From the NCBI GenBank assembly GCA_003550725.1, contig PUKZ01000003.1, positions 31,124-95,123 on the forward strand: a stretch of DNA of 64,000 nt, in the 5' to 3' direction. Both the position numbers and the translations under genes were made by a program. Numbering within the stretch: the stretch's first letter is position 1; the number at the start of each line of letters is the position of its first letter. A model generated the notes under the pieces. That model saw nothing but the letters and a program-made list of their open reading frames with translations, had not been told where the DNA came from and made no database searches. This document shows positions 30,350 through 50,005 of this stretch, piece after piece. The DNA comes from Bacteroidales bacterium (lineage in GTDB: Bacteria > Bacteroidota > Bacteroidia > Bacteroidales > UBA7960).

Positions 30350-30399
30350 TATAAATTAAGTTATAATTTTCATAATCAAAAAAATAAGATACCTAAGAA

Positions 30400-31236: not shown

Positions 31237-31261
31237 ATAAACATAAAAAATAACACATCAC

Positions 31262-31299
31262 AAAAAAAAGCTGTTACCCCTTAAGTAACAGCTTTTTTT
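31262..31299. terminator. Bidirectional rho-independent terminator between tsf (+) and a T9SS cargo gene (-)
   Basis: A perfect 10-bp stem AAGCTGTTAC/GTAACAGCTT (31268-31277 with 31285-31294) has loop CCCTTAA. It is flanked by an A-run on the 5' side and a T-run on the 3' side. Confidence 0.8.
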
Positions 31300-31349
31300 A
31301 CTATGAACCAAAATATCTTACATATAATCAAAAAATGAATTATAAAAAA

Positions 31350-32096: not shown

Positions 32097-32212
32097 AAAT
32101 GAAAAAATATTTAAAAATTATATAACGCTTGTAAACTATTCTTTTAGGATAGTTTTTAATAATCCCATAAAAACCTTAAATAATAATCCCGGAGCAACCG
32201 GGATTATTATCT

Positions 32213-34096
32213 TTAACGAGCCACTTGCACTCGCTTGGTTATGATACTTTCTTTGGTATGTATTTGAACAAAGTAAATACCCTGATGCAAATTACTAACA
32301 TTGATTTCTGAGCTTAATGCATCAACTGAAATCTCTTTTACCATTTGTCCGCTGACATTTATCAGCCTGATTTGTTTTATCAATTCATTTGATTCAACTG
32401 TAAGCCGGTTGCGTGCGGGATTGGGAAATATTACCATATCAATGGCATCATGTTTTTCAACAGAAGTAACATCATTAAAGTTAGCAACAATTTCAACATC
32501 ACCGGCCGGCATAGTTACAGTAGCTGTTTCCGATTCTGGGTCATCAATATGCTCTGTATCGCCCGACCAGTTTACAAACTCATAGTTTTCATTTGCTTCT
32601 GCAGAAATTGTCACTTCTTCACCAAAATAATATTCACCTTCACCGTCAACACTACCACCTTCTTCTGGGTCTGCTGAAATATTAAGACTATATAATATCG
32701 GTTCCATTATTACATTAACAGTTATATCATCATCAACATCAACACTTCCTTCATAATCAAGATGATATTCTGCTTCTACAAGGTAATCATATTCTCCGGG
32801 GATAACTATAAACTCGTAGTCGCCCGCTTGGTTAGTCATATCACCTAAAGTAATGACGGCATTATCGATTACGTAGCCATATTCATTTTCCACCTCGAAA
32901 GTAACTGTATACTCTTCGCCGGATTCAAGTTCAATTTCTACTGTTGTATCTTCAGTTATTTCAATATCTCCTGATTGAGTAAGATAATCTTCTAATGAAA
33001 CGCTCCATTCATAAGTACCTTCAAATACTTCATCAAAAACTATTATACCGTCTTCATCGGTTTCGCCTTCGTGGTCACCCAGTTCAACCCAGGCTCCTTC
33101 AAGGGGATCTTCGGTTGTTTCGCAAGTCACGATAAAAGTAACTTCATAAGCCTCTTCAAGCACTATATTTATTGTCATATCATCATCAACAGTAACTTCA
33201 TCTACAACGGTTTTATATCCGTCTTTTTCTACCTTATATTGATAATCACCCCCCGGTATATTGTTGAAAGAATAATCACCCGGACTGTTTTTAAAAACAT
33301 CGAATGTTACAATTGCATCAGTTATTTCATTACCATCATCGTCAAAAACATCAAAAGTGACTTCATGAAAGTCGGCCTGAAGATGAACGATATTAGCCTG
33401 AAATATTTCTTTGGAAGGTACATCCTGAACAAAAGCTATCACACTCATATTCTCTTCCTCCCAGTTTTGATCCAGGGTAAAACTTAAATCAACCACTTCA
33501 ACATCATTTGATGAAAAGTCGAGTGAAGTACCAAACTGATCAGGCGCCATAAGACGAAGCGCATCTTTCACATAGTTCTGGTTTTGCCAGTTATAAGGGA
33601 TATCTGTTTCAGTAACAGCAAAATGTAAAACAAGGTCATCAGCATCATAATCGTCTGAAACTTCTGTTATCTCAATACTTGCATCCCAGTCTAAACCTCC
33701 TGTGTTTTCAAAATAAATAGCAACAGTAAATGGAGAAGGAACATCAATTCTTTGATTATAGTAATTTAAATATACCGGATAAAGACTTTGGTTTGTACTT
33801 CCTCCCGCATGTTCCAGAATACCATCAATACGGGTATTAGGATAACCGGAAACCCCATAATAGCTGTTCCTGGCATTGGAATACACATTAGCAAAAGCAT
33901 CTCCATTATGATTTTTAATGATTGCTACTTCATGGCCATTTTCTATCAAATCATCGGCTCCCATTGCAGCACCAACACAAAACGGACACCAGGTCCCGGT
34001 TCCTATTTCAAAAACGACTTTTTGCCTTGAAACAGGCTCACCATAGGCTGTTAAGCCAAAAAAAATCACAATTAAACTAAGTATCGCTTTTTTCAT
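32213..34096 (-). CDS. T9SS cargo: an N-terminal WCxxC thioredoxin-like (Omp28-related-like) domain, three beta-sandwich repeats, a Listeria-Bacteroides-type repeat and a T9SS CTD
   Basis: 627 aa with a signal peptide, EIGTGTWCPFCVGAAMGADDL, and three CarboxypepD_reg-like ~70-aa repeats (e.g. HEVTFDVFDDDGNEITDAIVTFD...GGDYQYKVEKDGY). Further along are EGGSVDGEGEYYFGEEVTISAEANENYEFVNWSGD and the CTD FPNPARNRLTVESN...GIYFVQIHTKESIITKRVQVAR. The protein is strongly acidic. Confidence 0.7.
   Translation of the reverse strand: MKKAILSLIVIFFGLTAYGEPVSRQKVVFEIGTGTWCPFCVGAAMGADDLIENGHEVAIIKNHNGDAFANVYSNARNSYYGVSGYPNTRIDGILEHAGGSTNQSLYPVYLNYYNQRIDVPSPFTVAIYFENTGGLDWDASIEITEVSDDYDADDLVLHFAVTETDIPYNWQNQNYVKDALRLMAPDQFGTSLDFSSNDVEVVDLSFTLDQNWEEENMSVIAFVQDVPSKEIFQANIVHLQADFHEVTFDVFDDDGNEITDAIVTFDVFKNSPGDYSFNNIPGGDYQYKVEKDGYKTVVDEVTVDDDMTINIVLEEAYEVTFIVTCETTEDPLEGAWVELGDHEGETDEDGIIVFDEVFEGTYEWSVSLEDYLTQSGDIEITEDTTVEIELESGEEYTVTFEVENEYGYVIDNAVITLGDMTNQAGDYEFIVIPGEYDYLVEAEYHLDYEGSVDVDDDITVNVIMEPILYSLNISADPEEGGSVDGEGEYYFGEEVTISAEANENYEFVNWSGDTEHIDDPESETATVTMPAGDVEIVANFNDVTSVEKHDAIDMVIFPNPARNRLTVESNELIKQIRLINVSGQMVKEISVDALSSEINVSNLHQGIYFVQIHTKESIITKRVQVAR
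32298..32676. repeat. Duplicated block R1, copy a (partner 34261-34639)
   Basis: My hand alignment is collinear with no indels (constant offset 1963), with roughly 25 mismatches over ~379 nt. The block covers the Listeria-Bacteroides repeat and most of the CTD. Confidence 0.85.
33209..33752. repeat. Duplicated block R2, copy a (partner 34722-35264)
   Basis: The hand alignment is collinear at constant offset 1513, with about nine in ten bases identical by eye. It covers the first beta-sandwich repeat and the distal half of the N-terminal domain. Identity falls off sharply beyond 33752/35264. Confidence 0.85.
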
Positions 34097-34175
34097 AAGT
34101 TTAGGTTTTAAATTAATAATTAGATGTTAGTAAATATATTTTAATTTCCATGTTATAACAAAAACAAAATTATGT

Positions 34176-35624
34176 TTAGTTTACTATCTGAATAATTTCG
34201 TTTATTATACTTTCTTTAGTAAATATTTGCATGATGTAAGCCCCGTTTTTTAAGTTACTCACATTGATTTCTGAGCTTGAAGCATCAACTGAAATCTCCT
34301 TTACCATTTGTCCGCTGGCATTTATAAGCCTTATTTGTTTTATCAATTCATTTGATTCAACTGTAAGCTTGTTGCGTGCGGGATTGGGAAATATTACCAT
34401 ATCAATGGCATCATGTTTTTCAACATAAGTAACATCATTAAAGTTAGCAACGATCTCAACATCACCGGCCGGCATGGTTACAGTTGCTGTTTCCGATTCA
34501 GGATCATCAATATGCTCTGTATTACCTGACCAGTTTACAAACTCATAGTTTTCATTTGCTTCTGCAGAAATTGTCACTTCTTCACCAAAATAATATTCAC
34601 CTTCGCCGTAAACACTTCCTCCTTCTTCAGGGTATGCTGATAAACCAAGGCTAAAGAATTCCAACTCTTCCATAACAACCTCCAAAGTAACTTCATCATC
34701 AACAACAACCTCATCTTCAATGGTTTTATACCCGTCTTTTTCTACCTTATATTGATAATTACCCCCTGGTATATTGTTGAAGGAATAATCACCCGGATTG
34801 TTTTTAAAAACATCGAATGTTACAATTGCATCAATTATTTCATTACCATCATTGTCAAAAACATCAAAAGTGACAGTATGGAAGTCGGCCTGAAGATGAA
34901 CAATATTAGCCTGAAATATTTCTTTGGTTTGTTTATCCTGAACAAAAGCTATCACACTCATATTCTCTTGCTTCCAGTCTTCATCCAGGGTAAAACTTAA
35001 ATCAACCACTTCTATATCATTTGATGAAAAGTCGAGAGAAGTACCAAACTGATCTGGTGCCATGATGCGAAGCACATCTTTCACATGCGTTTGATTAAAC
35101 CAGTTATGAGGAATATCAGTTTCAGTAACGGCAAAATGTAAAACAAGGTCATCAGCATCATAGTCGTCTGAAACTTCTGTTATCTCAATACTTGCATCCC
35201 AGTTTAAGTCTCCCGTGTTTTCAAAATAAATGGCAACAGTATGTGGAGAGGGAATGTCAATTCTCTTATCGTAATATTGCTTATAGGCCACATATAAACT
35301 GCTGTCCGGACTTCCCGAAGAATGTGTAAGCACGCCATCAAACTTAGCTGTTGGATAGCCCAAAATTCCATAATAATCTATACGGTGTGTATGGTAAGCA
35401 TTAGTAAATTCATCGTTAAAGTGATATTTTAAAACAGCCACATTATGCTGGTTTTCGATCAAATCTGCAGCTCCCATTGCAGCACCCGGACAGTTGTAAC
35501 ACCATACATCGGTAACTATTTCTACAACCACATTTTGACGTGGTATACCCCTACCATAAAGAGAATTAAGCCCAAGTAAAATCAAAATAAAAAAAAATAT
35601 TCCTTTTTTCCTAATTATTAACAT
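34176..35624 (-). CDS. T9SS cargo, shorter tandem paralog of 32213-34096 (WCxxC domain, one beta-sandwich repeat, Listeria-Bacteroides-type repeat, CTD)
   Basis: 482 aa with EIVTDVWCYNCPGAAMGAADL. Large blocks are nearly identical to the neighbouring gene at both the protein and DNA level. The CTD is FPNPARNKLTVESN...GAYIMQIFTKESIINEIIQIVN. Confidence 0.7.
   Translation of the reverse strand: MLIIRKKGIFFFILILLGLNSLYGRGIPRQNVVVEIVTDVWCYNCPGAAMGAADLIENQHNVAVLKYHFNDEFTNAYHTHRIDYYGILGYPTAKFDGVLTHSSGSPDSSLYVAYKQYYDKRIDIPSPHTVAIYFENTGDLNWDASIEITEVSDDYDADDLVLHFAVTETDIPHNWFNQTHVKDVLRIMAPDQFGTSLDFSSNDIEVVDLSFTLDEDWKQENMSVIAFVQDKQTKEIFQANIVHLQADFHTVTFDVFDNDGNEIIDAIVTFDVFKNNPGDYSFNNIPGGNYQYKVEKDGYKTIEDEVVVDDEVTLEVVMEELEFFSLGLSAYPEEGGSVYGEGEYYFGEEVTISAEANENYEFVNWSGNTEHIDDPESETATVTMPAGDVEIVANFNDVTYVEKHDAIDMVIFPNPARNKLTVESNELIKQIRLINASGQMVKEISVDASSSEINVSNLKNGAYIMQIFTKESIINEIIQIVN
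34261..34639. repeat. Duplicated block R1, copy b (partner 32298-32676)
   Basis: See copy a. Confidence 0.85.
34722..35264. repeat. Duplicated block R2, copy b (partner 33209-33752)
   Basis: See copy a. Confidence 0.85.
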
Positions 35625-35644
35625 GTATTCTATCGTAATATCTA

Positions 35645-35652
35645 CAAATATA
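35645..35652 (-). promoter_or_regulatory. Candidate -7 promoter box for the T9SS cargo genes
   Basis: The minus strand reads TATATTTG, 21 nt upstream of the start at 35624. A similar box (TAATTTTG, minus strand, 34165-34172) precedes the second paralog. Confidence 0.4.
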
Positions 35653-35846
35653 CATCATTATATTTTTCTATAAAAATTTTTGGTCTAATTTTTCAAAAAA
35701 AAATTTAACTTTGTTATTATAGGGCGGATAATTAGATTATTACATGTAAATTTTGTCTTATTACTGCATGTAAATTATTATATCAATTAATACGAAACTT
35801 GCTAATTTAAGAAGAGAAATCCCAAAACTCACATAATAATTATTTA

Positions 35847-35854
35847 TATCTTTG
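35847..35854 (+). promoter_or_regulatory. Candidate -7 promoter box for the polyamine gene pair
   Basis: TATCTTTG lies 18 nt upstream of the ATG at 35873. Confidence 0.4.
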
Positions 35855-35872
35855 TAAAAAACCTGTTATTTT

Positions 35873-37072
35873 ATGAGTAAAGTATTAATTATTGGTGCCG
35901 GAGGTGTTGGCAATGTAGTTACACGCAAATGTGTTTCTAACCCTGAAATATTCAGCGAAATAATGCTTGCCAGCAGAACCCTGGAAAAATGTGAAAAAAT
36001 AGCTACAGATATTGGTAGCAATCGTGTTAAAACAGCAAAAGTTGATGCTGATAATTTGGGAGAATTGGTTTTTTTGATTGACAAATTCAACCCCAAACTA
36101 GTTATTAATGTGGCATTGCCATATCAGGATCTGACTATCATGGAAGCCTGTCTTAAAACCAAAACACACTACCTTGACACAGCTAATTACGAGCCAAAAG
36201 ATGAAGCTAAGTTTGAATATAAATGGCAATGGGCATATCATGATAAATTTAAAAATGCGGGGATTCTGGCATTACTAGGCTGCGGATTTGACCCCGGCGT
36301 TACAGGTGTTTTCACAGCTTATGCTTCAAAGCACTATTTTGATAAAATGCATTATCTTGATATTGTCGATTGTAATGCAGGTGATCACGGCAAATTTTTT
36401 GCCACCAACTTTAATCCTGAGATAAATATACGTGAGATTACACAAAATGGGCGTTACTGGGAAAACGGCAAATGGATAGAAACAAAACCTATGGAAATAC
36501 ATAAGCCTATTGAATATCCGGGTATTGGTAAAAAAGAATCTTACCTTTTGTATCATGAAGAATTAGAATCGCTGGTAAAAAATTTCCCGGAGATCAGGCG
36601 GGCAAGATTCTGGATGACATTTGGAGAAAGTTATTTAACTGCACTTAATGTTTTGCAGGAGGTTGGGATGACAAGCATAAAACCTGTTAAGTTTAAAGGT
36701 ATCGATATTATTCCACTCGAATTTCTTAAATCAATATTACCTGAACCATCAAACCTGGGCGAAGGATATAAAGGGCAAACTTCCATAGGATGCCAGATAA
36801 GAGGCATAAAAGATGGTAAAGAACGTACATACTACATATGGAATAACTGTGAACATGAAAAAGCTTATAATGATTCCAAAGCCCAGGCTGTTTCATTTAC
36901 AACAGGAGTTCCGGCTATGATCGGTTCAATGATGATCTTGTCCGGAAAATGGAATGGCAAGGGTGTTTATAATGTTGAACAGTTTGACCCGGATCCATTT
37001 ATGAAAGAATTGCCAAAATATGGTTTGCCATGGCATGAACAAATAGATCAGCCCTTACCTGTTGAAAAATAG
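35873..37072 (+). CDS. Carboxynorspermidine/carboxyspermidine dehydrogenase (saccharopine dehydrogenase family)
   Basis: 399 aa with the Rossmann motif VLIIGAGGVGNVV. It is adjacent to nspC, and this pair defines the alternative spermidine/norspermidine route. Confidence 0.8.
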   Translation: MSKVLIIGAGGVGNVVTRKCVSNPEIFSEIMLASRTLEKCEKIATDIGSNRVKTAKVDADNLGELVFLIDKFNPKLVINVALPYQDLTIMEACLKTKTHYLDTANYEPKDEAKFEYKWQWAYHDKFKNAGILALLGCGFDPGVTGVFTAYASKHYFDKMHYLDIVDCNAGDHGKFFATNFNPEINIREITQNGRYWENGKWIETKPMEIHKPIEYPGIGKKESYLLYHEELESLVKNFPEIRRARFWMTFGESYLTALNVLQEVGMTSIKPVKFKGIDIIPLEFLKSILPEPSNLGEGYKGQTSIGCQIRGIKDGKERTYYIWNNCEHEKAYNDSKAQAVSFTTGVPAMIGSMMILSGKWNGKGVYNVEQFDPDPFMKELPKYGLPWHEQIDQPLPVEK

Positions 37073-37077
37073 CCGAT

Positions 37078-38232
37078 ATGAAAGTTAATTTTTCGAAAAT
37101 ACCCTCCCCATGTTTTGTTTTGGATGAAGAATTACTAAAGATCAATCTTCAGATACTTGATATTATTCAAAAAGAAGCTGGAGTTGACATAATATGTGCA
37201 TTAAAAGGTTTTGCTTTTTGGGATACTTTTCCTTTAATTGGCCGATACCTTAAAGGGGCTGCTGCCAGCTCGCTTAATGAAGCACGGCTTGTTTACGAAG
37301 AAATGGGGGTTAAGGCTTATACTTATTGTCCTGCTTTTGATAAAAAGGAGGTCAAAGATATTGCCAAATACAGTTCACATATAACCTTTAATTCTTTAAG
37401 CCAATACGAACAACTGCTGGAAAAAATTCACAAATATGATTCAAATATAAGTTGCGGTTTAAGAATTAACCCAGAATACTCTGAAGTACAAACCGATATA
37501 TACAACCCGGCTCAGCCCGGATCGAGGCTTGGTATAACTTCAACCCAGATTGGAGATAGTTTACCACCCGGTATTGATGGTTTACTTTTTCACCTATTAT
37601 GCGAAAACGACTCATTTACTCTTGAACGAACATTACGGGAAGTTGAAAAACGCTTTTCTCATCTTATCAAACAGGCTCGCTGGTTCAATATGGGAGGTGG
37701 CCATCATATTACACGTAAAGATTATGACGTAAAGCACCTTGTTAAATTACTAAAAGACTTTAAAAACCGTTATCCCAACCTTGAACAAGTGATCCTGGAA
37801 CCGGGAGAAGCTATCGGCTGGCAAACCGGGGACCTGCTTGCAACAATTATTGACATAATTGAAAACAATAATATTAAAATTGCAATGCTGGATGTAAGTT
37901 TTGCCGCCCACATGCCCGACTGCCTTGAAATGCCATATAAACCGGAAATAATTGGAGCTTTTGATCCTGCTGATAAAAATGATGGCCACATATATCGGAT
38001 GGGAGGCACAACATGCATGGCAGGCGATTTTATGGGAATGGGTGACTATGCTTTCCAAAACCCATTAAAAATAGGAGATAAAATTATTTTTGATGATATG
38101 ATCCACTACACAATGGTAAAAACAACATTTTTTAATGGCGTGAAACACCCTTCAATCGGAATATGGAGAAACAACGAATTTAAAATGCTCAAACAGCCCG
38201 GTTATTTTGATTATAAAAATAAACTTTCCTGA
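37078..38232 (+). CDS. nspC: Carboxynorspermidine/carboxyspermidine decarboxylase
   Basis: 384 aa. It is a fold-III PLP decarboxylase-like protein (PSPCFVLDEELL, ALKGFAF, EPGEAI, GGTTCMAGD) with a 5-nt gap after the dehydrogenase gene. Confidence 0.85.
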   Translation: MKVNFSKIPSPCFVLDEELLKINLQILDIIQKEAGVDIICALKGFAFWDTFPLIGRYLKGAAASSLNEARLVYEEMGVKAYTYCPAFDKKEVKDIAKYSSHITFNSLSQYEQLLEKIHKYDSNISCGLRINPEYSEVQTDIYNPAQPGSRLGITSTQIGDSLPPGIDGLLFHLLCENDSFTLERTLREVEKRFSHLIKQARWFNMGGGHHITRKDYDVKHLVKLLKDFKNRYPNLEQVILEPGEAIGWQTGDLLATIIDIIENNNIKIAMLDVSFAAHMPDCLEMPYKPEIIGAFDPADKNDGHIYRMGGTTCMAGDFMGMGDYAFQNPLKIGDKIIFDDMIHYTMVKTTFFNGVKHPSIGIWRNNEFKMLKQPGYFDYKNKLS

Positions 38233-38241
38233 ATTTAATAA

Positions 38242-39237
38242 TCAATTCAACTTTTCCGATAGTTTTGAAATTTCTTCGGAAGGTAATTTACCTTTATACA
38301 ATATATTATAAACTGCCTCTGTGATTGGCATATTTAAATGCAACTTAATACTCATATCATATATGCCTTTCACAGCATAATATCCTTCAGCAACCATTTT
38401 GGTTTCGTATTGCGCTGATTTTACACTATGCCCTTTACCTATCATATTTCCAAACATCCTGTTGCGACTAAATTGCGAATAACAGGTAACTAACAAATCA
38501 CCAAGATAAACCGTATCATTAATATTTCTATTTAAATTAGACTGGGAAGCAAGAAAACAATTTATTTCCTTTACAGCATTGGAAATAAGTACAGCCTGGA
38601 AGTTATCACCATAACCCAAACCATTACAAATACCGCTGGCAACAGCAATAATGTTTTTTAAGACAGGCGAATATTCAGCCCCTACAACATCATTGGTAAT
38701 TGATGTTTTGATATATCTGCAATCAAATAAAACTGAAATTTCTTTTGCCAAATATTTATCGGATGAAGCAATGGTCAAATAGGTAAGCTTTTCCAAAGCT
38801 ACTTCCTCTGCATGTGAAGGACCCGTAGCAATTGCAACCCGGCTTAAATCAACACCATAATATTTCGTTAAATATTCTCCAACAACCATATTATAATCCG
38901 GTATTATACCTTTAATAGCACTAACTAAAATCTTATCTTTTATTAAGTTGTAATCAATATTTTTTGTTGTTTCATAAAAATATACTGCAGGCAGGCAAAA
39001 GATAATTATTTGGGAATCTTTAATTGTTGAGCCAAGATTGTCATACAAATTGATTTGTTTTTTATCAAATTGAACCGAGCTTAAATAATAAGGATTATGA
39101 TTAAACCTTTTCAGATGATTTATTATTTCCGGTTCACGTATCCACCAATTGACCTTTTTAACATTATTGAGTAAAATTTTAACTATAGCAGTAGCCCAGC
39201 TTCCAGAACCTATTACTGCGATCTCATTTTTTTGCAT
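38242..39237 (-). CDS. gpsA: NAD(P)H-dependent glycerol-3-phosphate dehydrogenase
   Basis: 331 aa with IAVIGSGSWATAI, GPSHAEEVA and NVIAVASGI. Confidence 0.9.
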   Translation of the reverse strand: MQKNEIAVIGSGSWATAIVKILLNNVKKVNWWIREPEIINHLKRFNHNPYYLSSVQFDKKQINLYDNLGSTIKDSQIIIFCLPAVYFYETTKNIDYNLIKDKILVSAIKGIIPDYNMVVGEYLTKYYGVDLSRVAIATGPSHAEEVALEKLTYLTIASSDKYLAKEISVLFDCRYIKTSITNDVVGAEYSPVLKNIIAVASGICNGLGYGDNFQAVLISNAVKEINCFLASQSNLNRNINDTVYLGDLLVTCYSQFSRNRMFGNMIGKGHSVKSAQYETKMVAEGYYAVKGIYDMSIKLHLNMPITEAVYNILYKGKLPSEEISKLSEKLN

Positions 39238-39257
39238 AAATAAAAAATTTTTATGTG

Positions 39258-39265
39258 CAAATATA
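39258..39265 (-). promoter_or_regulatory. Candidate -7 promoter box for gpsA
   Basis: The minus strand reads TATATTTG, 21 nt upstream of the start at 39237. Confidence 0.4.
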
Positions 39266-39729
39266 GCCCTTAAATCAGCAATTTACCTAATATTTTGCCC
39301 TACCTGCTTAATTTTTTCACAAAAAATATATCCCACTTTTATACTTTCTCTGCTATACAGCTTTTTGGTATATTATTTTAAGACCTGGTTTTACAATAAT
39401 TTTGCCGTTTAATAAATTTAAAACATTACCACTCTGCAAGCATCAACTACTGGTTTCGTTCAAAAATTTAAATTAATAACAGAAAATTTGAAACAAACCA
39501 TTAAAATAAAACTCCGGACTTAATATTCAGCAATATTATGGAAGCTGATTTGAATGACCAAATAAAGTTATTATTTGAAAAACCCGTCTTAAAACTGGTA
39601 TTTTCGGTCATTACTACTGATTGGTTATTATGCTTTTGAGGGTCGGAACACAATAGCTTAAAACGAAACTTTAAACCAGGTAAAATAACAAACTTTAGAA
39701 TTAAATTTGTTCTTTTTCGAAAACCTTTT

Positions 39730-39737
39730 TATATTTG
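39730..39737 (+). promoter_or_regulatory. Candidate promoter of the metH leader (-7 TATATTTG with an upstream TTTG)
   Basis: TATATTTG is at 39730-39737 and TTTG at 39706-39709, a 20-nt spacer that matches the two-part Bacteroides-type promoter. It lies ~45 nt upstream of the riboswitch. Confidence 0.45.
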
Positions 39738-39755
39738 TATTTAATTAAAATTTAA

Positions 39756-39779
39756 AATCCTTCTTCCTAAAGAAGGATT
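39756..39779 (+). other. Perfect 10-bp hairpin at the 5' end of the metH leader
   Basis: AATCCTTCTT (39756-39765), loop CCTA, AAGAAGGATT (39770-39779). It sits between the candidate promoter and riboswitch stem P1. Its function is unknown. Confidence 0.5.
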
Positions 39780-39782
39780 TGA

Positions 39783-39878
39783 TTTATAAAGAAGAGCTGA
39801 GAGAACAGGCTCTATGAAGCTCTAGCAACCTACTTACCGGAGTAAAGGTGCTAAAACCTGCCTTAAAGGAATTATAAA
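39783..39878 (+). promoter_or_regulatory. SAM-I (S-box) riboswitch aptamer
   Basis: The sequence is UUUAUAAAGAAGAGCUGAGAGAACAGGCUCUAUGAAGCUCUAGCAACC...AAGGUGCUAAAACCUGCC...AAUUAUAAA. It keeps the conserved AGAG / GAGnGA / AUGAA / GCAACC / GGUGCUAA / CCUGC blocks in order. Stem P1 is 39783-39789 with 39872-39878. It lies upstream of metH. Confidence 0.8.
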
Positions 39879-39895
39879 CTCAAAATTCAATTATC

Positions 39896-40027
39896 ATGAA
39901 AAATTTCTTTTCTTGTTATGTTGTTCAGGCACAAGGGCTTTTGCCTTTGGAAAGTAGTTTATCCTCTCAAAATGGAATTTTCGGATTAACATCATGTTCA
40001 TTTATGTTGATGTTTATGCGCGTATAA
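39896..40027 (+). CDS. Candidate 43-codon leader ORF with a Met-rich C-terminus (unverified)
   Basis: Hand translation gives MKNFFSCYVVQAQGLLPLESSLSSQNGIFGLTSCSFMLMFMRV. It is too short for the ORF track. It starts 17 nt after the riboswitch P1, and 3 of its last 7 codons are ATG. There is no homology evidence. Confidence 0.2.
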   Translation: MKNFFSCYVVQAQGLLPLESSLSSQNGIFGLTSCSFMLMFMRV

Positions 40028-40038
40028 AAACGCGCCAT
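40016..40038 (+). terminator. GC hairpin overlapping the leader-ORF stop codon; candidate attenuator
   Basis: GCGCG (40018-40022) pairs with CGCGC (40031-40035) across the loop TATAAAAA, extendable by AT/AT with one bulge. The hairpin is followed by CTTTAAAATT, a weak U-tract. Confidence 0.3.
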
Positions 40039-40272
40039 CTTTAAAATTCGCTTAATATCCGGGGTTTTTCACACCTAAATTCTAAATCTCGAAAAGGTAG
40101 TATTCAATTTTTGATTTTTCATGTGAAGTATTACAGCATGCTCTCACAACAAGTTACTACCTAATATTCCGGATTTTTGTTGGTAAATGTGGATTATAGG
40201 TAGAAACACCGGGATATATTATCAAATAAAGTATTAAATAAAAAAACAGGGAACTAAATAAATATATTACTT

Positions 40273-42888
40273 ATGTTATTAAAAAAAATATTAAAAGAAC
40301 GCATTCTTATACTTGATGGTGCCATGGGCTCGCTCATTCAGCACAATGAGCCTAAAGAGTCAGACTACAGGGGCAGTAAACTGAAGGATCATCCAATAAA
40401 ACTAAAAGGAAATCACGAGTTGCTCAACTTGCATTGTAAAGATTTGGTTTATGATATTCATTCTTCTTATTTGAAAGCCGGGGCAGATATTATAACGACC
40501 AATACATTTAATGCAAATTCGTTGTCACAAAGTAATTATAAAACAGAGCATCTATGCTACGATATAAATCTTAATGCAAGTCTAATTGCCGTTAAAGCTG
40601 CAAAAAAATATTCGACCGGTATCAAGCCCAGGTTTGTTGCCGGGTGTGTTGGTCCAACATCCAAATCATTATCAATGTCATTGGTTTCAAAAGTATCTGA
40701 AGAGCAAGGCTTATCTTTTGATAAGCTTGCAGATGCATATTCTGAACAAATAAGCGGACTTATTGACGGTGGGGTTGATATACTGATGATAGAAACGGTT
40801 TTTGACACCCTTAATACTAAAGCAGCTATTTATGCTGCAAAAAAAATATTACACGACAGGGCCAAAAGCATTCCTTTAATGATATCAGCAACAATTGCAG
40901 GAAAATCGGGGCGTTTACTTTCGGGGCAAACCATATCTGCCTTCTACCACTCTGTAAAACATGCTAATCTATTATCTATAGGTTTAAATTGCAGCTTCGG
41001 TCCGGAAGAGTTGAAACCATTTATAAAAGATCTTCAGGAAGAAGCTGAATGTTTTATTTCTTTTCATCCAAATGCCGGAATGCCTGACCATGAAGGTAGT
41101 TACACACAAACACCGGGGCAGATGGCAAAGAATATTGAAAATATTTTGCAAAACATTAAAATAAATATAATTGGAGGATGTTGCGGCACAACACCCGAAC
41201 ATATAAATACTTTATCGAATGTTGTAACAAAATTCAGCCCTAAGCCACCAAATATAAAAAAACATTCAACAGTTTTAGCAGGTCTTGAACCTTTAAAAAC
41301 AAATGATAGCAACGAGCTCATTTATGTTGGCGAAAAAACAAATGTATCCGGATCACGAAAATTTGCGAAATTAATAAAATCGCAAAACTACCGTGAAGCT
41401 GTTATTGTTGCAGAACAACAAATTGAAGAAGGAGCAAGAATCCTTGATATTTGCATGGATACAGCAGGAGTTGATTCTGCATCAGCAATAAAAGATTTTT
41501 TGACACATTTAAACGCTAATCCGCATCTTTCGAAGCATCCTGTAATGATTGATTCTTCGGATTTTCAAACAATCAAAACTGCCTTAAAATGTATTCAGGG
41601 CAAACCCATTGTCAACAGCATTTCACTAAAGAACGGGGAGCAAGATTTTATTAATAAAGCCACCGAAATAAAAAACATGGGTGCATCAATTGTAGTTATG
41701 TTATTTGATGAAAAGGGTCAGGCAGATACAACCAAAAGAAGGAAAGAGATAGTTTCAAGAAGCTACGAATTACTAACCAATAAAGCAGGCCTGCCTGCCG
41801 AAGACATTATATTCGACCCAAACTTAATGGCTTTAGGAATAGATGTTAATGATTCCGAAAATCAAGCAATAAGCTTTTTAGAAACCTGCAAGTATATTAA
41901 GTCTAATTACCCGCAAACAAATATTACAGGTGGGGTAAGTAATTTATCTTATGCTTTCAGAGGGGCAAACCAATCGCGCAGAGCTATACATCATGTTTTT
42001 TTAAAAAAGGCACTTGAAGCAGGCTTTAAATTTGCCATAGTAAATCCCTCTATGATCAATAATAATGACATACCAGATGAGTTATTAAAATTAGCCGGCG
42101 ACGTGGTATTTGAAAAAAGACCTGCAGCTATAGAGCATTTATTAAACTACATTAAGCCTGAGTCAAGTAAAAAAACAAAAGAAAAAAAGAGCTCGTGGCG
42201 TGAACAAAATATCAAAAATCGTTTAAAATATGCACTAATTAATGGTATAGGTGATTATCTTAAAAAAGACGTAGAATCTGCTATTAAAAAGCTTGATAAC
42301 CCTTACAAAATTATTGAAGAGATTCTTATGCCTGCTATGGATGAAATTAGCAACAGGTATGACGAAGGAACCCTGTTTTTGCCACAGGTAATACGCAGTG
42401 CCACAATATTTCAAAAAGCTGTCGAATATATACATCCTTATCTAAGCTCTAAAAGCAGAAATACAAATGATTCAGAGCAGGTAGTTGTCCTGGCCACGGT
42501 TGAGGGAGACGTTCATGATATCGGTAAAAACATTGGATCAATTGTTTTTGAATGCAATGGTTTCAAAGTAATTGACCTTGGTGTTATGGTTCCGGCTCAG
42601 AAAATTATTGAAACAGCAAAGAAAAATGATGCCGCCATGATTGGCTTAAGCGGCCTTATCACCCCATCACTGATGGAAATGGCAAGGGTAGCTGAATTAA
42701 TGGAAAAAAATAAATTAAAAATCCCTCTGCTTATTGGAGGAGCAACAACTTCAGAAAAGCATACCAAAGAAAATATATCTGTCAAATATAATGGACCGGT
42801 AATACATATAAAAGATGCTTCAAAAATTGGTGCAATTTTAAAAAAATATCATGAAAACAATGCCATTAATAATGTTTGCAGAAAATAA
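40273..42888 (+). CDS. metH: Cobalamin-dependent methionine synthase, short form lacking the C-terminal AdoMet reactivation domain
   Basis: 871 aa. It has an Hcy-binding domain (ILDGAMGS...GGCCGTTPEHI), a pterin-binding domain, the B12 cap and a B12-binding domain with the DxHxxG motif (EGDVHDIGKNIG). The protein ends right after the Rossmann-like B12 domain. Confidence 0.9.
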   Translation: MLLKKILKERILILDGAMGSLIQHNEPKESDYRGSKLKDHPIKLKGNHELLNLHCKDLVYDIHSSYLKAGADIITTNTFNANSLSQSNYKTEHLCYDINLNASLIAVKAAKKYSTGIKPRFVAGCVGPTSKSLSMSLVSKVSEEQGLSFDKLADAYSEQISGLIDGGVDILMIETVFDTLNTKAAIYAAKKILHDRAKSIPLMISATIAGKSGRLLSGQTISAFYHSVKHANLLSIGLNCSFGPEELKPFIKDLQEEAECFISFHPNAGMPDHEGSYTQTPGQMAKNIENILQNIKINIIGGCCGTTPEHINTLSNVVTKFSPKPPNIKKHSTVLAGLEPLKTNDSNELIYVGEKTNVSGSRKFAKLIKSQNYREAVIVAEQQIEEGARILDICMDTAGVDSASAIKDFLTHLNANPHLSKHPVMIDSSDFQTIKTALKCIQGKPIVNSISLKNGEQDFINKATEIKNMGASIVVMLFDEKGQADTTKRRKEIVSRSYELLTNKAGLPAEDIIFDPNLMALGIDVNDSENQAISFLETCKYIKSNYPQTNITGGVSNLSYAFRGANQSRRAIHHVFLKKALEAGFKFAIVNPSMINNNDIPDELLKLAGDVVFEKRPAAIEHLLNYIKPESSKKTKEKKSSWREQNIKNRLKYALINGIGDYLKKDVESAIKKLDNPYKIIEEILMPAMDEISNRYDEGTLFLPQVIRSATIFQKAVEYIHPYLSSKSRNTNDSEQVVVLATVEGDVHDIGKNIGSIVFECNGFKVIDLGVMVPAQKIIETAKKNDAAMIGLSGLITPSLMEMARVAELMEKNKLKIPLLIGGATTSEKHTKENISVKYNGPVIHIKDASKIGAILKKYHENNAINNVCRK

Positions 42889-42934
42889 AACAACCCATAC
42901 ACACTATATTACCTAATATATTTTATACTCCAAA

Positions 42935-44611
42935 TCAAAATAGACCGGTAATATTACCATCATTATCTATACTGATTTTTTCCGCTGATGGTTTTGCGGG
43001 CAAGCCGGGCATACGCATAATAGTACCGGCTACAGGCACGATAAATCCGGCACCTGCAGCTATTTCAAACTCGCGGATTTTAATGACAAAATCTCTGGGT
43101 CTGTTAATTTTATTTTGATCATCGGAAAGCGACTTTTGTGTTTTTGCAACACATACAGGGAGTTTATCCAGTCCGAGTTTTTTGAAATTTTCTATCTGTG
43201 TCTTGGCTTTTACAGTATATTCAACGTGGTCGGCTCCATATAATTTAGTGGCTATAGTATGAAGCTTTCTTTCAATATCCCAGTTAAAATCGTATAAAGG
43301 ATCAAAACATGTAGTACATTTTTCAGCTTCTTGTTTGACTAGTTCAGCAAGCTCAATTGCTCCTTCTCCTCCTTTTGCCCATGATTCACAAACTGCTACT
43401 CTGACACCGAGACTTTCGCATTTTTGTTTAACAATATTAATTTCTTCTTCGGTATCATCAGTGAAGTGGTTAATTGCAACCACCGGACTGATATTGAAAT
43501 GTTGTATGTTTTCAATATGTTTTTCCAGGTTTTGGAGCCCTCTGCTAACCGCCTCAGGATCACTCTCGTTAAGCATATTGGATTTAACACCTCCATGATG
43601 TTTCAAAGCCCTGATAGTGGCAACAATTACCGATGCATTAGGGAAAAGTCCGCCATATTGACATTTGATATTAAGAAACTTTTCTGCTCCCAGTTCAGAA
43701 GCAAAACCGGCCTCTGTAACAACATAATCAGAAAGTGACAGGCCCATTTTTGTTCCGATAAGAGAATTTGTGCCTTGTGCTATATTGGCAAAAGGCCCTC
43801 CATGAATAATCGCCGGATTACCCTCTATGGTTTGAACCAGGTTAGGCATAATGGCATATTTCATCAATGCTGCCATAGCTCCCTGGGCATTAAGTTGATG
43901 TGCATATACAGGTTTGTCGTCAAAAGAAAAGCCAAAAAGAATATTACCAAATTTATTTTTTAAATCTTCAATATCTTTTGCAAGGCATAAAGCAGCCATA
44001 ACTTCAGATGCTGCAGTAATATCAAAGCCGGTTTGCCTGGGCATACCCTGTTTACGACCTCCAAGACCAATAACAATATCACGCAAAGACCTCTCATTCA
44101 TATCCATTACCCGCTTCCATATAACTTTGCGAGGATCGAGATCCAAAGTGTTTTGCCTGTTGTGTATATGATTATCAATAAGAGCCGAAAGCAGATTATG
44201 TGCCTTTTCAACAGCGGCTATGTCGTTAGTAAAGTGAAAGTTAATATCTTCCATTGGTAAAACCTGCGAAAATCCCCCACCGGCTGCACCACCTTTTATG
44301 CCAAACACCGGGCCTAATGAGGGCTCGCGCAAAACCACAGTAGTTTTAGTTCCAATCCGATTTAAACCTTCAGCTAAACCAATACTGGTCGTGGTTTTTC
44401 CCTCCCCGGCAGGAGTCGGAGTAATAGCTGTTACCAGTACCAGCTTTTTATTATTTAATACTTTATCATCTATCAATCGTAAAGGCAACTTAGCAATATA
44501 TTTACCATATTTATGAAGATCATCTTCCTTCAAACCAAGTTTAGCTGCTATATCTTCAATATCTTGCATTTTAATTGCTTTGGCTATTTCTATATCTGTT
44601 TTCATATGCAA
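42935..44611 (-). CDS. fhs: Formate-tetrahydrofolate ligase
   Basis: 558 aa with TPAGEGKTTTSIGL, PSLGPVFGIKGGAAGGG and HGGPFANIA. Confidence 0.95.
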   Translation of the reverse strand: MHMKTDIEIAKAIKMQDIEDIAAKLGLKEDDLHKYGKYIAKLPLRLIDDKVLNNKKLVLVTAITPTPAGEGKTTTSIGLAEGLNRIGTKTTVVLREPSLGPVFGIKGGAAGGGFSQVLPMEDINFHFTNDIAAVEKAHNLLSALIDNHIHNRQNTLDLDPRKVIWKRVMDMNERSLRDIVIGLGGRKQGMPRQTGFDITAASEVMAALCLAKDIEDLKNKFGNILFGFSFDDKPVYAHQLNAQGAMAALMKYAIMPNLVQTIEGNPAIIHGGPFANIAQGTNSLIGTKMGLSLSDYVVTEAGFASELGAEKFLNIKCQYGGLFPNASVIVATIRALKHHGGVKSNMLNESDPEAVSRGLQNLEKHIENIQHFNISPVVAINHFTDDTEEEINIVKQKCESLGVRVAVCESWAKGGEGAIELAELVKQEAEKCTTCFDPLYDFNWDIERKLHTIATKLYGADHVEYTVKAKTQIENFKKLGLDKLPVCVAKTQKSLSDDQNKINRPRDFVIKIREFEIAAGAGFIVPVAGTIMRMPGLPAKPSAEKISIDNDGNITGLF

Positions 44612-44916
44612 TATTTTTATCTATTAACAAATTGTTATTATCTATAAAATATTTAATAATTGTATCCCAATTAATTATACATTAAAATCTGAAATTAACA
44701 GCTTTAAATATAATCTTAATAATAAAATATATTATTTAAATTACCCGGAAAAACTAATACAAGATCAAAATAAAATATCGTCAATATTCATTTTAACAAA
44801 CCAAAAATATAATAAATTGTTTAATTATAATATTATTATCTAAAATACCTGCAACATGAAACCACGGTTTTTTATCAACAAAAACTACTAATGCGATTGA
44901 GTAGATTATTTTTTTG

Positions 44917-44924
44917 TAAATTTG
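44917..44924 (+). promoter_or_regulatory. Candidate -7 promoter box for ftsX
   Basis: TAAATTTG lies 16 nt upstream of the ATG at 44941. Confidence 0.4.
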
Positions 44925-44940
44925 CGTTTTATAAAATACT

Positions 44941-45822
44941 ATGGCAAAACAAGAAGATATTATTGTAGGCAGGAGGCTTAAGAGCTCATACATTTCTACA
45001 GTGGTTAGTATAACACTTGTATTATATGTATTGGGTTTGTTAGGGTTAATAGTATTACACGCACAAAAAATATCAGGCCATATTCAGGAAAACATTGGAT
45101 TCCAGGTGATACTGGCAGAAAATGCCGGGCAACCCGAAGTAATGTCAATGCAAAGAACTATTGATGCTATGCCGGCAGTGAAATCTTCTAAGTTTATTTC
45201 CAAAGAAGAAGCTGCCGAAGACTTAATGGATGAATTGGGTGAAGACTTTGTTGACTTTCTCGGATATAACCCACTTTTCCCTTCAATAGATGTTAGACTA
45301 AGAGCTGATTATACACATCCTGATTCCATTCAAATTTTCGAAAATCAATTAACAGAAAACAGAATAGTAAAAGAAGTATATTACCAAAAATCCTTAGTGC
45401 ATTTGATTAATGAAAATGTCAGAAGAATAGGTTTTGTGTTACTTCTTTTCAGTGCTTTACTTACAATAATTGCATTTGCACTTATAAATAACACAATAAG
45501 ACTTAGTGTTTTTGCAAAACGTTTTCTTATAAAAAGCATGCAGCTTGTAGGTGCAACACAATCCTTTATAAGAAGGCCATTTGTTATTAAAGGTATTACA
45601 CAGGGAATTATAGGATCAATAATAGCTATAGGCCTACTTATTTTTACACTATACACGGCGCAAAGACAAATACCAGATTTACAGGCGTTTCAGGATATCA
45701 CTTTGCTGTTTTTGCTTTTTGCTCTTATTGTAATTTTAGGTATTATAATAAGCTGGGTTTCGTCTTATTTTGCAGTTAGGAAATATTTGAAAATAAAAAC
45801 CGATTATCTTTACTTTTATTAG
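44941..45822 (+). CDS. ftsX: Cell division protein FtsX-like permease
   Basis: 293 aa with one N-terminal TM helix, a periplasmic domain, then three C-terminal TM helices (FtsX topology). No ftsE gene is adjacent. Confidence 0.8.
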   Translation: MAKQEDIIVGRRLKSSYISTVVSITLVLYVLGLLGLIVLHAQKISGHIQENIGFQVILAENAGQPEVMSMQRTIDAMPAVKSSKFISKEEAAEDLMDELGEDFVDFLGYNPLFPSIDVRLRADYTHPDSIQIFENQLTENRIVKEVYYQKSLVHLINENVRRIGFVLLLFSALLTIIAFALINNTIRLSVFAKRFLIKSMQLVGATQSFIRRPFVIKGITQGIIGSIIAIGLLIFTLYTAQRQIPDLQAFQDITLLFLLFALIVILGIIISWVSSYFAVRKYLKIKTDYLYFY

Positions 45823-45836
45823 AAAATTTAAAAAAT

Positions 45837-46088
45837 ATGGCAAAAAAAAAACAACCCGAAAAAGAATTGTTGTTTGATAAACGCAAGTACACTTTGTTGA
45901 TTGCAGGATTGCTGATCATAGCATTAGGCTTTATCCTTATGATTGGAGGAGGCACAGAAGATCCAACAAAATTTTCTGAAGATATATTCAGCTTTAGAAG
46001 AATCACTTTGGCACCTATTTTGGTAATACTAGGCTTTGCTTTGCAAATTTATGTTATCCTCAGCAAAAAGGGTAATAAATCTACATGA
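45837..46088 (+). CDS. DUF3098 domain-containing small membrane protein
   Basis: 83 aa with two TM helices and FSFRRITLAP. It sits in the conserved position between ftsX and uppP. Confidence 0.65.
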   Translation: MAKKKQPEKELLFDKRKYTLLIAGLLIIALGFILMIGGGTEDPTKFSEDIFSFRRITLAPILVILGFALQIYVILSKKGNKST

Positions 46089-46346
46089 GATACCATCAAT
46101 AAAAAGTAAACATGTTAGCCTTGTTAATGCTAATCCACCATTAAAAGTATTCTGTTAGCTGTAAAAAGGCTTTAATATCTTTTCCATTGATTTTAGTATT
46201 TTTTTTATTTATCCCGGAAGTGGTCTGTAATGTTGTTTTTTTTACGCTTTAAATTAAACTAAACATTTTATTTTATTTAATTTTTTTCTGAAGTCTTCAC
46301 GTAAAATTTAATTTTTGCTAATCCAAAACCCGATAATAATTTTTTT

Positions 46347-46354
46347 TATTTTTG
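46347..46354 (+). promoter_or_regulatory. Candidate -7 promoter box for uppP-truB
   Basis: TATTTTTG lies 31 nt upstream of the ATG at 46386. Confidence 0.4.
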
Positions 46355-46385
46355 CGCAAATTATATTCATAAAGTAAATTTATAT

Positions 46386-47180
46386 ATGAGTTGGCTTGAA
46401 GCATTTATACTTGGCCTTTTACAAGGCCTTACCGAGTTTTTACCTGTAAGCAGCAGTGGTCATTTAGAACTGGGAGGAGCTTTATTCGGATTAGAAGACC
46501 CTCACGATTTTTTTACTTTTAACATAATTGTACATGGTGCAACATTCTTGAGTGTTGTAGTAGTATTTTGGCGTGATATTGTTTCATTGGTAACAAATTT
46601 TTTCAGATTCAAGTGGAATTCTGAAATGCGTTTTGCTTTATTATTATTGGCATCTGCAGTACCCACAGGTATTGTAGGCTTACTTTTTGAAGAACAAATA
46701 GAAAGCATTTTTGAAGGCAGGGTTTCATTCATTGGGTTTATGCTTCTTATCACAGCTACTTTGCTTTTCCTGACACGTTTTATACCAAAGAATGACAAAG
46801 ACGTTACACTGAAAAGTGCCATTACAATTGGTATTGCGCAAACATTTGCAATACTTCCCGGCATTAGCCGTAGCGGGGCCACAATCAGCACGGCTTTGTT
46901 TTTTGGTATTGAGAGAACCAGGGCAATACGCTTCTCTTTCATAATGGCGCTGATTCCAATATTTGGGGCTAATTTCCTTAAGATAGTCAGAATGTCAGAA
47001 GAAGTTGGAAGCGCATCTATAGATATAGCACCCATGTTAATAGGTGCCATAACTGCTTTTATTGCAGGTATAATTGCCTGCAAATGGATGTTAAACATTG
47101 TAAGAAGAGGAAAAATAGAATATTTCTCCATTTATTGCCTGATAGTAGGCTTAACGGCTATAATTGCCGGCAGCATTTAA
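46386..47180 (+). CDS. uppP: Undecaprenyl-diphosphate phosphatase
   Basis: 264 aa with LGLLQGLTEFLPVSSSGHL and PGISRSGATI, the BacA/UppP signature motifs. Confidence 0.9.
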   Translation: MSWLEAFILGLLQGLTEFLPVSSSGHLELGGALFGLEDPHDFFTFNIIVHGATFLSVVVVFWRDIVSLVTNFFRFKWNSEMRFALLLLASAVPTGIVGLLFEEQIESIFEGRVSFIGFMLLITATLLFLTRFIPKNDKDVTLKSAITIGIAQTFAILPGISRSGATISTALFFGIERTRAIRFSFIMALIPIFGANFLKIVRMSEEVGSASIDIAPMLIGAITAFIAGIIACKWMLNIVRRGKIEYFSIYCLIVGLTAIIAGSI

Positions 47181-47185
47181 AGCTC

Positions 47186-47893
47186 ATGAATTCAGAAAAA
47201 CAATTAAAAGAATCTTTGGTAATAGGGCGCATGTTGCTTTTGGATAAACCATATCAATGGACATCATTTGATGTGGTAAACAAGATCAGAGTATTGTTGC
47301 GTTATAAACTCGACATTAAAAAAATAAAAATAGGACATGCCGGCACTTTAGACCCGCTGGCTACAGGATTATTAATTATATGCACAGGCCAAATGACCAA
47401 GTCGATCCATGAATTTCAAAACATGGATAAAGAGTATACCGGCACCTTCTATCTTGGAGCAACAACACCTTCATTCGACCTTGAAACATCTCCTGATAAA
47501 AATTACCCCATTGAGCATATTACAAAAAAAATGATCATTGACGCGACAAAATTACTGACAGGAAAAATAGAACAATTGCCACCATTGTATTCTGCAAAAA
47601 AAATCAATGGCAAACGCGCTTACAAATATGCAAGAAAAGGTGAAAACGAAACTCCGATCAAATCAAACCCGGTTCATATATATAACTTCAAAATAACAAG
47701 GATAGAACTCCCCGAAGTAGATTTCAATATTGAATGCAGCAAAGGAACATATATAAGATCTTTAGCGCGTGATTTTGGAGCTTACCTCCAGTCAGGCGCC
47801 TATCTTAAATCTTTAAGGCGAATTAGAATTGGAAAGTACCGGGTATGCGATGCATTTAGCTTAGAGCAATTAGAAAAGTTTTTAAAAAATTAA
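47186..47893 (+). CDS. truB: tRNA pseudouridine(55) synthase
   Basis: The track ORF begins at 47084, inside uppP. I place the start at the in-frame ATG 47186 (MNSEKQLKESLVIGRMLLLDKPYQWTSFDVV). The catalytic motif is GHAGTLDPLATG. Confidence 0.9.
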   Translation: MNSEKQLKESLVIGRMLLLDKPYQWTSFDVVNKIRVLLRYKLDIKKIKIGHAGTLDPLATGLLIICTGQMTKSIHEFQNMDKEYTGTFYLGATTPSFDLETSPDKNYPIEHITKKMIIDATKLLTGKIEQLPPLYSAKKINGKRAYKYARKGENETPIKSNPVHIYNFKITRIELPEVDFNIECSKGTYIRSLARDFGAYLQSGAYLKSLRRIRIGKYRVCDAFSLEQLEKFLKN

Positions 47894-48256
47894 AGGAGTA
47901 GTGCCCTTTATTTTCAATAAACATTTTTATAAAAAATCAAACAATTTATTTTTCCTAAATGTTAAAATTTCACAAATAATCAGCTTTTTTTTTATAGTTA
48001 AATCATAATAAATTATGCAACATAATGAAAAAACATATTTAGTTATTGTTTTTTATTTTTAAACTATTATTGACAAAAGCCTTTTCAAATATTATATTTG
48101 TAAATCTTATCAAAAAATATTTAATTTTTATCAAATCATACCTAAAATCAATTACCTGTGATTTAACAATTATTATTTGATTGGGTAAAGCGAAAAACAG
48201 CCGGCTGTTTTCCACCGAAATAAACATAATTTATAAAATTAAAATAAGATAGTAAG

Positions 48257-49306: not shown

Positions 49307-49314
49307 TTTAAAAT

Positions 49315-49998: not shown

Positions 49999-50005
49999 CT
50001 GCATA

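Follow-up and report, generated by a model that had tools for sequence, protein, structure and literature searches.

Can a single messenger RNA leader sense both S-adenosylmethionine (SAM) and the supply of charged methionine tRNA? The question is raised by the leader of metH, the gene for cobalamin-dependent methionine synthase, in a 64,000-nucleotide (nt) stretch of a Bacteroidales contig (PUKZ01000003.1, positions 31,124 to 95,123; hereafter the window), where a SAM-I riboswitch aptamer is followed by a short upstream open reading frame (uORF) with a run of Met codons at its end. A first-pass annotation of this DNA had read the arrangement as a possible two-layer sensor, with a fortuitous open reading frame (ORF) as the alternative. 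Our favoured reading, to which we give a probability of about 0.5 on the basis of sequence comparison, is that the uORF is translated and would receive SAM as an input at initiation, through the aptamer, and Met-tRNA supply as an input at elongation, through the Met run.

The elements on which this reading is built are present in the window (Table 1). The aptamer, placed at 39783-39878 by the first-pass annotation, is delimited by Rfam within 2 nt of those ends and is, judged by a covariance model that includes the four-helix junction, a member of the SAM-I family. The Met-rich ORF has the 43 codons attributed to it, the three ATGs picked out near its end are all in frame, and three Met within the last 15 codons correspond to a binomial P of 0.003. 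The gap of about 245 nt reported between the uORF stop and metH is exactly that (40028-40272). Some details needed adjustment: the ATG does follow helix P1, at a distance of 15 nt from the Rfam end of that helix (the 17 nt given earlier counts from 39878), and the perfect hairpin 5′ of the aptamer exists with 11 base pairs (bp) rather than 10. A GC hairpin spans the TAA stop codon as claimed, its 5′ arm formed by the last Met-Arg-Val codons and its 3′ arm lying past the stop, but this placement is peculiar to the window; in the relatives described below the ORF continues for another 2-4 codons and the GC hairpin, where kept, lies inside the Met/Arg codons.

Relatives were taken from the contigs of MetH clusters, and a scan of Joint Genome Institute (JGI) metagenomes, using the aptamer 3′ end plus the ORF start as a pattern, added two more loci (L017 and L024). 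The protein search returned six clusters of short MetH (858-861 amino acids, aa), 64-69% identical to the MetH of the window and originating from soda-lake sediment metagenomes and metagenome-assembled genomes; all other matches were about 49% identical, full-length and of Bacteroidales and Marinilabiliales type. In the seven short-MetH lineages that have a SAM-I leader, the aptamer scores 72-82 bits and is located 231-474 nt before metH; in the relatives, aptamers of 74-82 bits all occupy the equivalent place. Every short-MetH locus with enough upstream sequence has one, except L010.

Leaders from six short-MetH lineages other than that of the window could be compared, and in five of them (L004, L008, L009/L017/L034, L011 and L013) an ORF of 45-50 codons occupies the same position and frame. 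These ORFs start 15-16 nt past P1, begin with MKN or MKS and end in M.M.M[RH].MR[VI]. In the alignment, the 40 nt past P1, ATG included, hardly vary, the ORF middle cannot be aligned and has no conserved composition, and the last 40 nt or so are conserved again. A six-frame check found no internal stop in frame 0 of any ORF-bearing lineage, and the other five frames were not open throughout; no alternative coding frame or antisense ORF is open across the lineages. Since the lineages are related, the accompanying statistics overstate independence: the diverged middle, when shuffled, stays open in 16-33% of trials per lineage (product 6e-5), and the Met codons, of which 3-6 stand in frame among the last 15 codons, have binomial P values per lineage from 3e-3 in the window to 1e-7. 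Past the start codon, a single Met lies outside those last 15 codons, in L011. Over all lineages, 30/32 ATGs in the last 20 codons are in frame and 2/32 out of frame; how many Met codons there are, and where they lie, varies between lineages, yet all are in frame. One lineage (L013) has lost the GCGC hairpin and carries the most Met codons, six, so that Met codons are more constant than the hairpin.

A pair of near-identical strains adds a local detail. Across their 476-nt leaders, L009 and L034 have 10 differences, which all fall within uORF codons 15-30 and are all nonsynonymous, against a background of about 0.7%; none of the 10 (L009:2690-2740 versus L034:1190-1240) falls at codon position 3. 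Such a pattern is that of a frame that would need to be translated while its middle is irrelevant, which is leader-peptide-like and unlike a structural protein. A local recombination tract, relaxed constraint or diversifying selection could account for these differences. The metH genes of the same pair form a mosaic, differing at 12 sites over the first 1800 nt and at 67 over the final 780 nt (L009:3001-5583 versus L034:1501-4083), which indicates recombination between strains or chimeric metagenome assembly.

Table 1. Features of the metH leader and gene in the window, and uORF peptides of the relatives
Feature	Positions	Strand	Details
Promoter, Bacteroidota sigma-A type	39706-39737	+	-33 TTTG 39706-39709; 20-nt spacer; -7 box TATATTTG 39730-39737
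5′ stem-loop, 11 bp	39755-39780	+	arms AAATCCTTCTT (39755-39765) and AAGAAGGATTT (39770-39780); loop CCTA; adjoins aptamer
SAM-I (S-box) aptamer	39781-39880	+	RF00162; 78.7 bits (gathering 44.4); E 8e-17; model positions 1-108, full length
Spacer from P1 to uORF, A/U-rich, 15 nt	39881-39895	+	CAAAATTCAATTATC; sequence and length (15-16 nt) kept in relatives (alignment)
Leader ORF (uORF), 43 codons	39896-40027	+	MKNFFSCYVVQAQGLLPLESSLSSQNGIFGLTSCSFMLMFMRV; ATG 15 nt past Rfam end of P1
Met run M-L-M-F-M	40004-40018	+	in-frame AUGs at 40004, 40010 and 40016
GC hairpin	40018-40035	+	GCGCG 40018-40022 with CGCGC 40031-40035; loop TATAAAAA; TAA 40025-40027 inside loop
Long-range stem, 5′ arm	40054-40075	+	AATATCCGGGGTTTTTCACACC; conserved G-rich and U-tract block after uORF
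Direct repeat of 5′ arm	40162-40180	+	TAATATTCCGGATTTTTG; alternative 10-bp partner for 40211-40220; hairpin in minimum free energy (MFE) folds
Long-range stem, 3′ arm	40187-40222	+	core AAACACCGGGATATATT 40204-40220
metH, cobalamin-dependent methionine synthase, 871 aa	40273-42888	+	Pfam PF02574, PF00809, PF02607, PF02310 present; PF02965 absent
uORF peptide, L004			MKNYFLDYKFLPEGIVKIAVNFIPQFSISISIFCLLSCMGMCARIMRVPR
uORF peptide, L008			MKNFFFSYRFLSKGQLATAVFTKFWCQPTFMSFNMRMFMRFMRIT
uORF peptide, L009			MKSFFFSFRILLQDPTAATTNAIEWYNPTPAPAFMTMRMRFMRII; L034/L017 a variant of L009
uORF peptide, L011			MKNSFLSYGFLLKNQLLIAVNVIIRHMPTLASSHMCMFMRYMRVN
uORF peptide, L013			MKNFFSDYRFLIQCRPTNGQSRNFWCEPTFMPYYMCMFMHMMRVI

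From the aptamer, the conserved frame and the enrichment in Met, we infer a possible chain of events. Transcription would begin at the Bacteroidota-type promoter, the SAM-I aptamer would form first, and the uORF just past P1 would then be translated. SAM binding would close P1 beside the start codon and thereby reduce uORF initiation. Bacteroidota are largely without Shine-Dalgarno-led initiation, and these bacteria probably use an unstructured A/U-rich landing site instead, part of which a closed P1 would remove. A ribosome that has initiated would read 3-6 Met codons, embedded in the GC hairpin, within the last dozen codons of the uORF, and would dwell on this run if charged elongator tRNA-Met were in short supply. 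By waiting there, near the uORF stop, it may prevent premature loss of the transcript in the structured spacer of about 245 nt, for which Rho-dependent termination, weak intrinsic termination and decay are the candidate routes. The net effect would be metH expression at low SAM, and more of it at low Met-tRNA.

Leader-peptide attenuation is established for His, Trp, Phe, Leu, Thr and Ile/Val, and a Cys-codon uORF upstream of cysS was recently found to be an amino-acid-specific attenuator (PMC8632094). Neither a Met-codon leader peptide nor a SAM riboswitch followed by a leader peptide is described in the full-text literature that we searched, subscription-only papers lying outside its coverage, which agrees with the earlier remark that no such Met leader was known. 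We tentatively suggest, with a little less than even confidence, that the metH leader holds the first natural Met-codon leader peptide to sense methionine, placed in series with SAM-I and with an output that does not involve a classical terminator/antiterminator pair. As a conjecture, the lack of described Met leaders may stem from the fact that Met is also required to start a leader peptide. If our reading is true, a Met-codon leader sensor can exist, and one leader would integrate a cofactor pool and an amino-acid pool in a compact natural two-input RNA logic, with a metabolite read at initiation and tRNA charging read at elongation of the same uORF. The arrangement further points to a way in which riboswitches might operate where initiation is largely not led by a Shine-Dalgarno sequence.

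The proposed output is where the reading is weakest, and the observations in this and the following paragraph weigh against it. On the + strand between 39200 and 40600 there is no terminator-like site, including directly after P1, where the first-pass annotation had likewise seen none, and additional scans were equally empty. Mutually exclusive terminator and antiterminator hairpins with a U tract at the end of the ORF were not found in the window. A candidate terminator (T1) that would combine the G-rich/U-tract block with the region of the stop codon seemed promising in L008; its upstream partner, however, did not outperform shuffles in any lineage, and T1 was rejected as a conserved element. 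A weak hairpin with a U run inside the domain of the long-range stem occurs in four relatives only and not in the window. Tracts resembling a Rho-utilization (rut) site, C-rich and G-poor (C>G), are not common to the lineages, and masking of the metH start by the leader was not above chance. In simple folding, the accessibility of the uORF start is the same in aptamer-closed and P1-open models. The idea of a two-layer sensor is thus partly supported, with the conserved frame, the Met run and the aptamer in its favour, but no terminator, antiterminator, rut site or masking of the metH start could be defined that would pass the signal of a stalled ribosome on to metH. The metH leader is not demonstrated to belong to the terminator/antiterminator attenuator class, whose defining feature was looked for and not found.

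The sample itself is small, with seven short-MetH lineages known, all of them uncultured soda-lake bacteria, and one of these has no Met run, which makes the run dispensable in at least one lineage. In that lineage (L024, reverse strand, 5333-5664) the aptamer, the spacer and the ATGAAAAAT start are kept, the ORF has 12 codons (MKNSYCFLLVFA) and no Met run, and the leader is 231 nt long; it also contains CCGG hairpins that overlap (UCGGA/UCCGG and UCCGG/CCGGA), with a U run after them. This pattern suggests that the uORF start is the core of the riboswitch expression platform and the Met run an added layer. Moreover, AUG is the sole Met codon, so selection on codons is not fully separable from selection on an AUGCGC-repeat RNA.

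The search for terminators has to be read against the habits of the source organism. Over the 20 kb from 30001 to 50000, 17 terminator-like sites were counted where chance alone would give 12.8, and only a single one, located at a gene end, looks clearly canonical; the 46-nt gap between the convergent metH and fhs genes (42889-42934) has no hairpin. The organism may place little reliance on canonical intrinsic terminators, and, since these are rare in the genome, a missing classical terminator is only weak evidence against regulated termination. With no terminator after P1, the nearest possible expression-platform element is the start codon, which lies inside a weak conserved A/U hairpin. Pairing of the 5′ strand of the aptamer (AAAGAAG) with UUUCUUU in codons 4-6 was considered as an anti-sequestor and set aside; the match is of low complexity, and folding favours it only in L009.

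Downstream of the uORF, a conserved long-range stem is seen. The G-rich/U-tract block finds a partner that lies 100-165 nt further on and has a core resembling AAACACC(C/U)GG, and a similar 3′ arm is seen in L011, L013 and L008. In the window, the duplex of 40054-40075 with 40187-40218 has a free-energy change (dG) of -16.9, which 6/300 dinucleotide shuffles equal, and it is also found in the MFE fold. The stem beats most shuffles in 5/6 lineages (Fisher combined p 3e-4 over six), and reading of the arms shows changes on both sides that preserve pairing, UUUGCCUG/CAGGCAAA in L008 and GUUAUUACCU/AGGUAAUGAC in L009. The motif TAATAT(T)CCGG..TTTTT occurs as a direct repeat at 40053-40070 and 40162-40180; each copy can pair with 40204-40222, and their palindromic CCGG also lets the two copies pair together, which gives mutually exclusive long-range helices; the helix between the two copies is followed by a U run. 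A hairpin considered as conserved at uORF codons 8-16 was no more stable than shuffles.

Several other explanations of the uORF compete with the reading given above. The one that survives best, which we nonetheless regard as unlikely, takes the uORF to be the expression platform of the SAM riboswitch and nothing else: its translation, controlled by SAM, would protect the leader from Rho or RNases, or expose the leader to them, and the Met run would be a by-product of an AUGCGC/GCGCAU hairpin needed as RNA, e.g., for a ribosome or polymerase pause. The start region is indeed the best conserved part and is kept without a Met run in L024. ATGCGC is self-complementary, the Met/Arg codons of L008, L009 and L011 form AUGCGC/GCGCAU hairpins (93% paired in the relatives), and the window retains a hairpin despite the earlier end of its ORF. 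However, L013 has six in-frame Met codons and no GCGC hairpin; Met codons also lie outside the hairpin arms, e.g., in a conserved (T/F)-F-M further upstream, and the AUGs hold a strict codon period while the residues between them vary.

Less probable again, in our judgement, is a nascent-chain arrest peptide: methionine, SAM or homocysteine would trigger stalling through the C-terminal M.MFMR.MR[VI], codon starvation being irrelevant. Models for such a peptide are TnaC with tryptophan, SpeFL with ornithine and plant CGS1 with SAM. Conservation extends to residues other than Met (R, then V/I before the stop, and an N-terminal MKNFF.SYRFL), synonymous changes are seen at Arg (AGG/CGG), Val (GUA/GUU/GUC) and Leu (UUG/UUA), the length is exactly 45 codons in 5/7 lineages, and the long untranslated spacer resembles the layout of the tna operon. 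On the other hand, the RNA hairpin and the start-region stem can account for the conserved non-Met positions, the window and L004 deviate in length and in C-terminal residues, and the leader peptide is, to our knowledge, unlike any known arrest peptide.

A small functional protein, for instance a Met-rich metal-binding or MetH-associated one that is co-regulated with metH by the riboswitch, would fit a conserved ORF with a promoter and a riboswitch directly upstream, and MxM motifs do occur in copper-binding proteins. We consider it very improbable: the middle two thirds have no conserved sequence or hydrophobicity pattern, 10/10 substitutions between near-identical strains are nonsynonymous, the ORF is lost in L024, and no homologue was found in the protein libraries searched. 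Searches of 5.8 billion clusters and 1.8 billion representative proteins returned only the peptide of the window itself and that of L005, and Pfam gave no match to the leader peptide; one match to a 318-aa protein (E 1e-5) looks spurious. Finally, a fortuitous open frame in an AT-rich leader can be rejected, even though a lone 43-codon ORF is not rare and the shuffled middle of the window stays open in 17% of trials, because start, frame and Met run are kept in six lineages with diverged, unalignable middles, and every other frame is interrupted in at least one of the six. Conservation of the frame and the Met codons in orthologous leaders had been chosen beforehand as the test that might refute the two-layer idea, and in five other lineages it came out positive.

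The upstream end of the leader also deserves comment. The promoter-like pair seen in the first pass is present, and its -7 box, TAnnTTTG, is kept in 8/8 aligned leaders; the same -7 consensus was described for Flavobacteria sigma-A promoters (PMC9723704). Transcription is predicted to start at about 39743-39746. In the leader alignment, a hairpin 5′ of the aptamer is kept in the relatives with different arm sequences. On the minus strand, the hairpin at 39755-39780 is a terminator-like site with a T-rich tail, and it may serve in 5′ end protection, as an aid to aptamer folding or as an antisense terminator. An unassigned stretch of about 460 nt (39238-39700), up to about 690 nt in relatives (L004:1740-2425), separates the metH promoter from the divergent gene upstream; it has no Rfam match and, among those examined, no conserved ORF. 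At gathering score, Rfam finds no RNA family other than SAM-I in the whole window; with E up to 10, no credible further family, including the Bacteroid-trp leader RF01692, appears in 39600-40400, and the 245-nt spacer likewise gave no match to another riboswitch or any known RNA family.

MetH of this clade is unusual in its architecture. The protein comprises homocysteine-methyltransferase, pterin-binding and two B12-binding domains and has no C-terminal activation domain. PF02965 (AdoMet-dependent activation) is absent in the window and in the six closest clusters (858-871 aa, P0002-P0007) and present in the other top matches (1210-1267 aa), so reactivation in the short-MetH clade must come another way. 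Outside the set of leaders compared above, regulation appears heterogeneous. L010 (L010:1-378), a short-MetH locus at 64% identity, has no leader and its metH lies 36 nt after the upstream gene, and L035 (L035:269-344) has a SAM-II aptamer (RF00521) 17 nt before metH. The N-terminal 300 aa of MetH, used as a query for further lineages, matched only fragments of 46-56% identity, the two retrieved having SAM-II or no riboswitch. A scan of a genome collection found only loci with 49%-identical MetH, two with short SAM-I leaders and none with the uORF. In that 49%-identical group, L003 has a 129-aa ORF between aptamer and metH; no comparable uORF is present in the more distant MetH leaders examined.

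How does the metH leader compare with known systems? The nearest class is that of the leader-peptide attenuators (trpL, hisL, pheL, thrL, leuL and ilvL, Bacteroid-trp RF01692 and the cysS uORF), with which it shares a short 5′ ORF before an amino-acid biosynthesis gene, cognate codons near the end of the ORF and embedded in a hairpin, and a peptide middle that is free to vary. It differs from them in that the codons are Met, the length is 43-50 codons against the classical 14-32, the ORF stands between a riboswitch and a structured spacer of 211-306 nt, and no overlapping terminator/antiterminator set can be defined. The tna operon leader (tnaC) and Rho-blocking stalling uORFs also combine a leader ORF with a spacer of more than 200 nt, and the signal, as proposed for metH, is a ribosome that stays on the last codons of the ORF; however, in TnaC the nascent chain detects free tryptophan and the stop codon carries a rut site, a tract of which the metH leaders have no common counterpart. 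Firmicutes Met T-boxes control methionine genes through tRNA-Met charging, the input proposed for the metH leader, and in some lineages they replace or complement the S-box, but a T-box binds the tRNA directly and Rfam finds none in the window.

Two systems combine a small-molecule sensor with a second signal. In the mgtA leader of Salmonella, a Mg2+ riboswitch is joined to a proline-codon ORF, mgtL, whose translation speed is a second signal, and the output is Rho-dependent termination at a distance. The likeness, a small-ligand RNA sensor and a short codon-biased ORF in one leader, is an architectural analogy only: mgtA/mgtL involves another ligand and another amino acid, has mgtL inside the riboswitch structure where the metH uORF follows the aptamer, and bears no sequence similarity to the metH leader. 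The SAM-I(Xcc) riboswitch of Xanthomonas campestris senses SAM and uncharged tRNAfMet and acts at translation on methionine synthesis genes (PMC7270179). Its expression platform binds the uncharged initiator tRNA directly and has no leader peptide or Met run, in which it differs from the metH leader; alike are the two inputs, SAM and methionine-tRNA charging, that our reading would bring together in one leader (PMC7270179).

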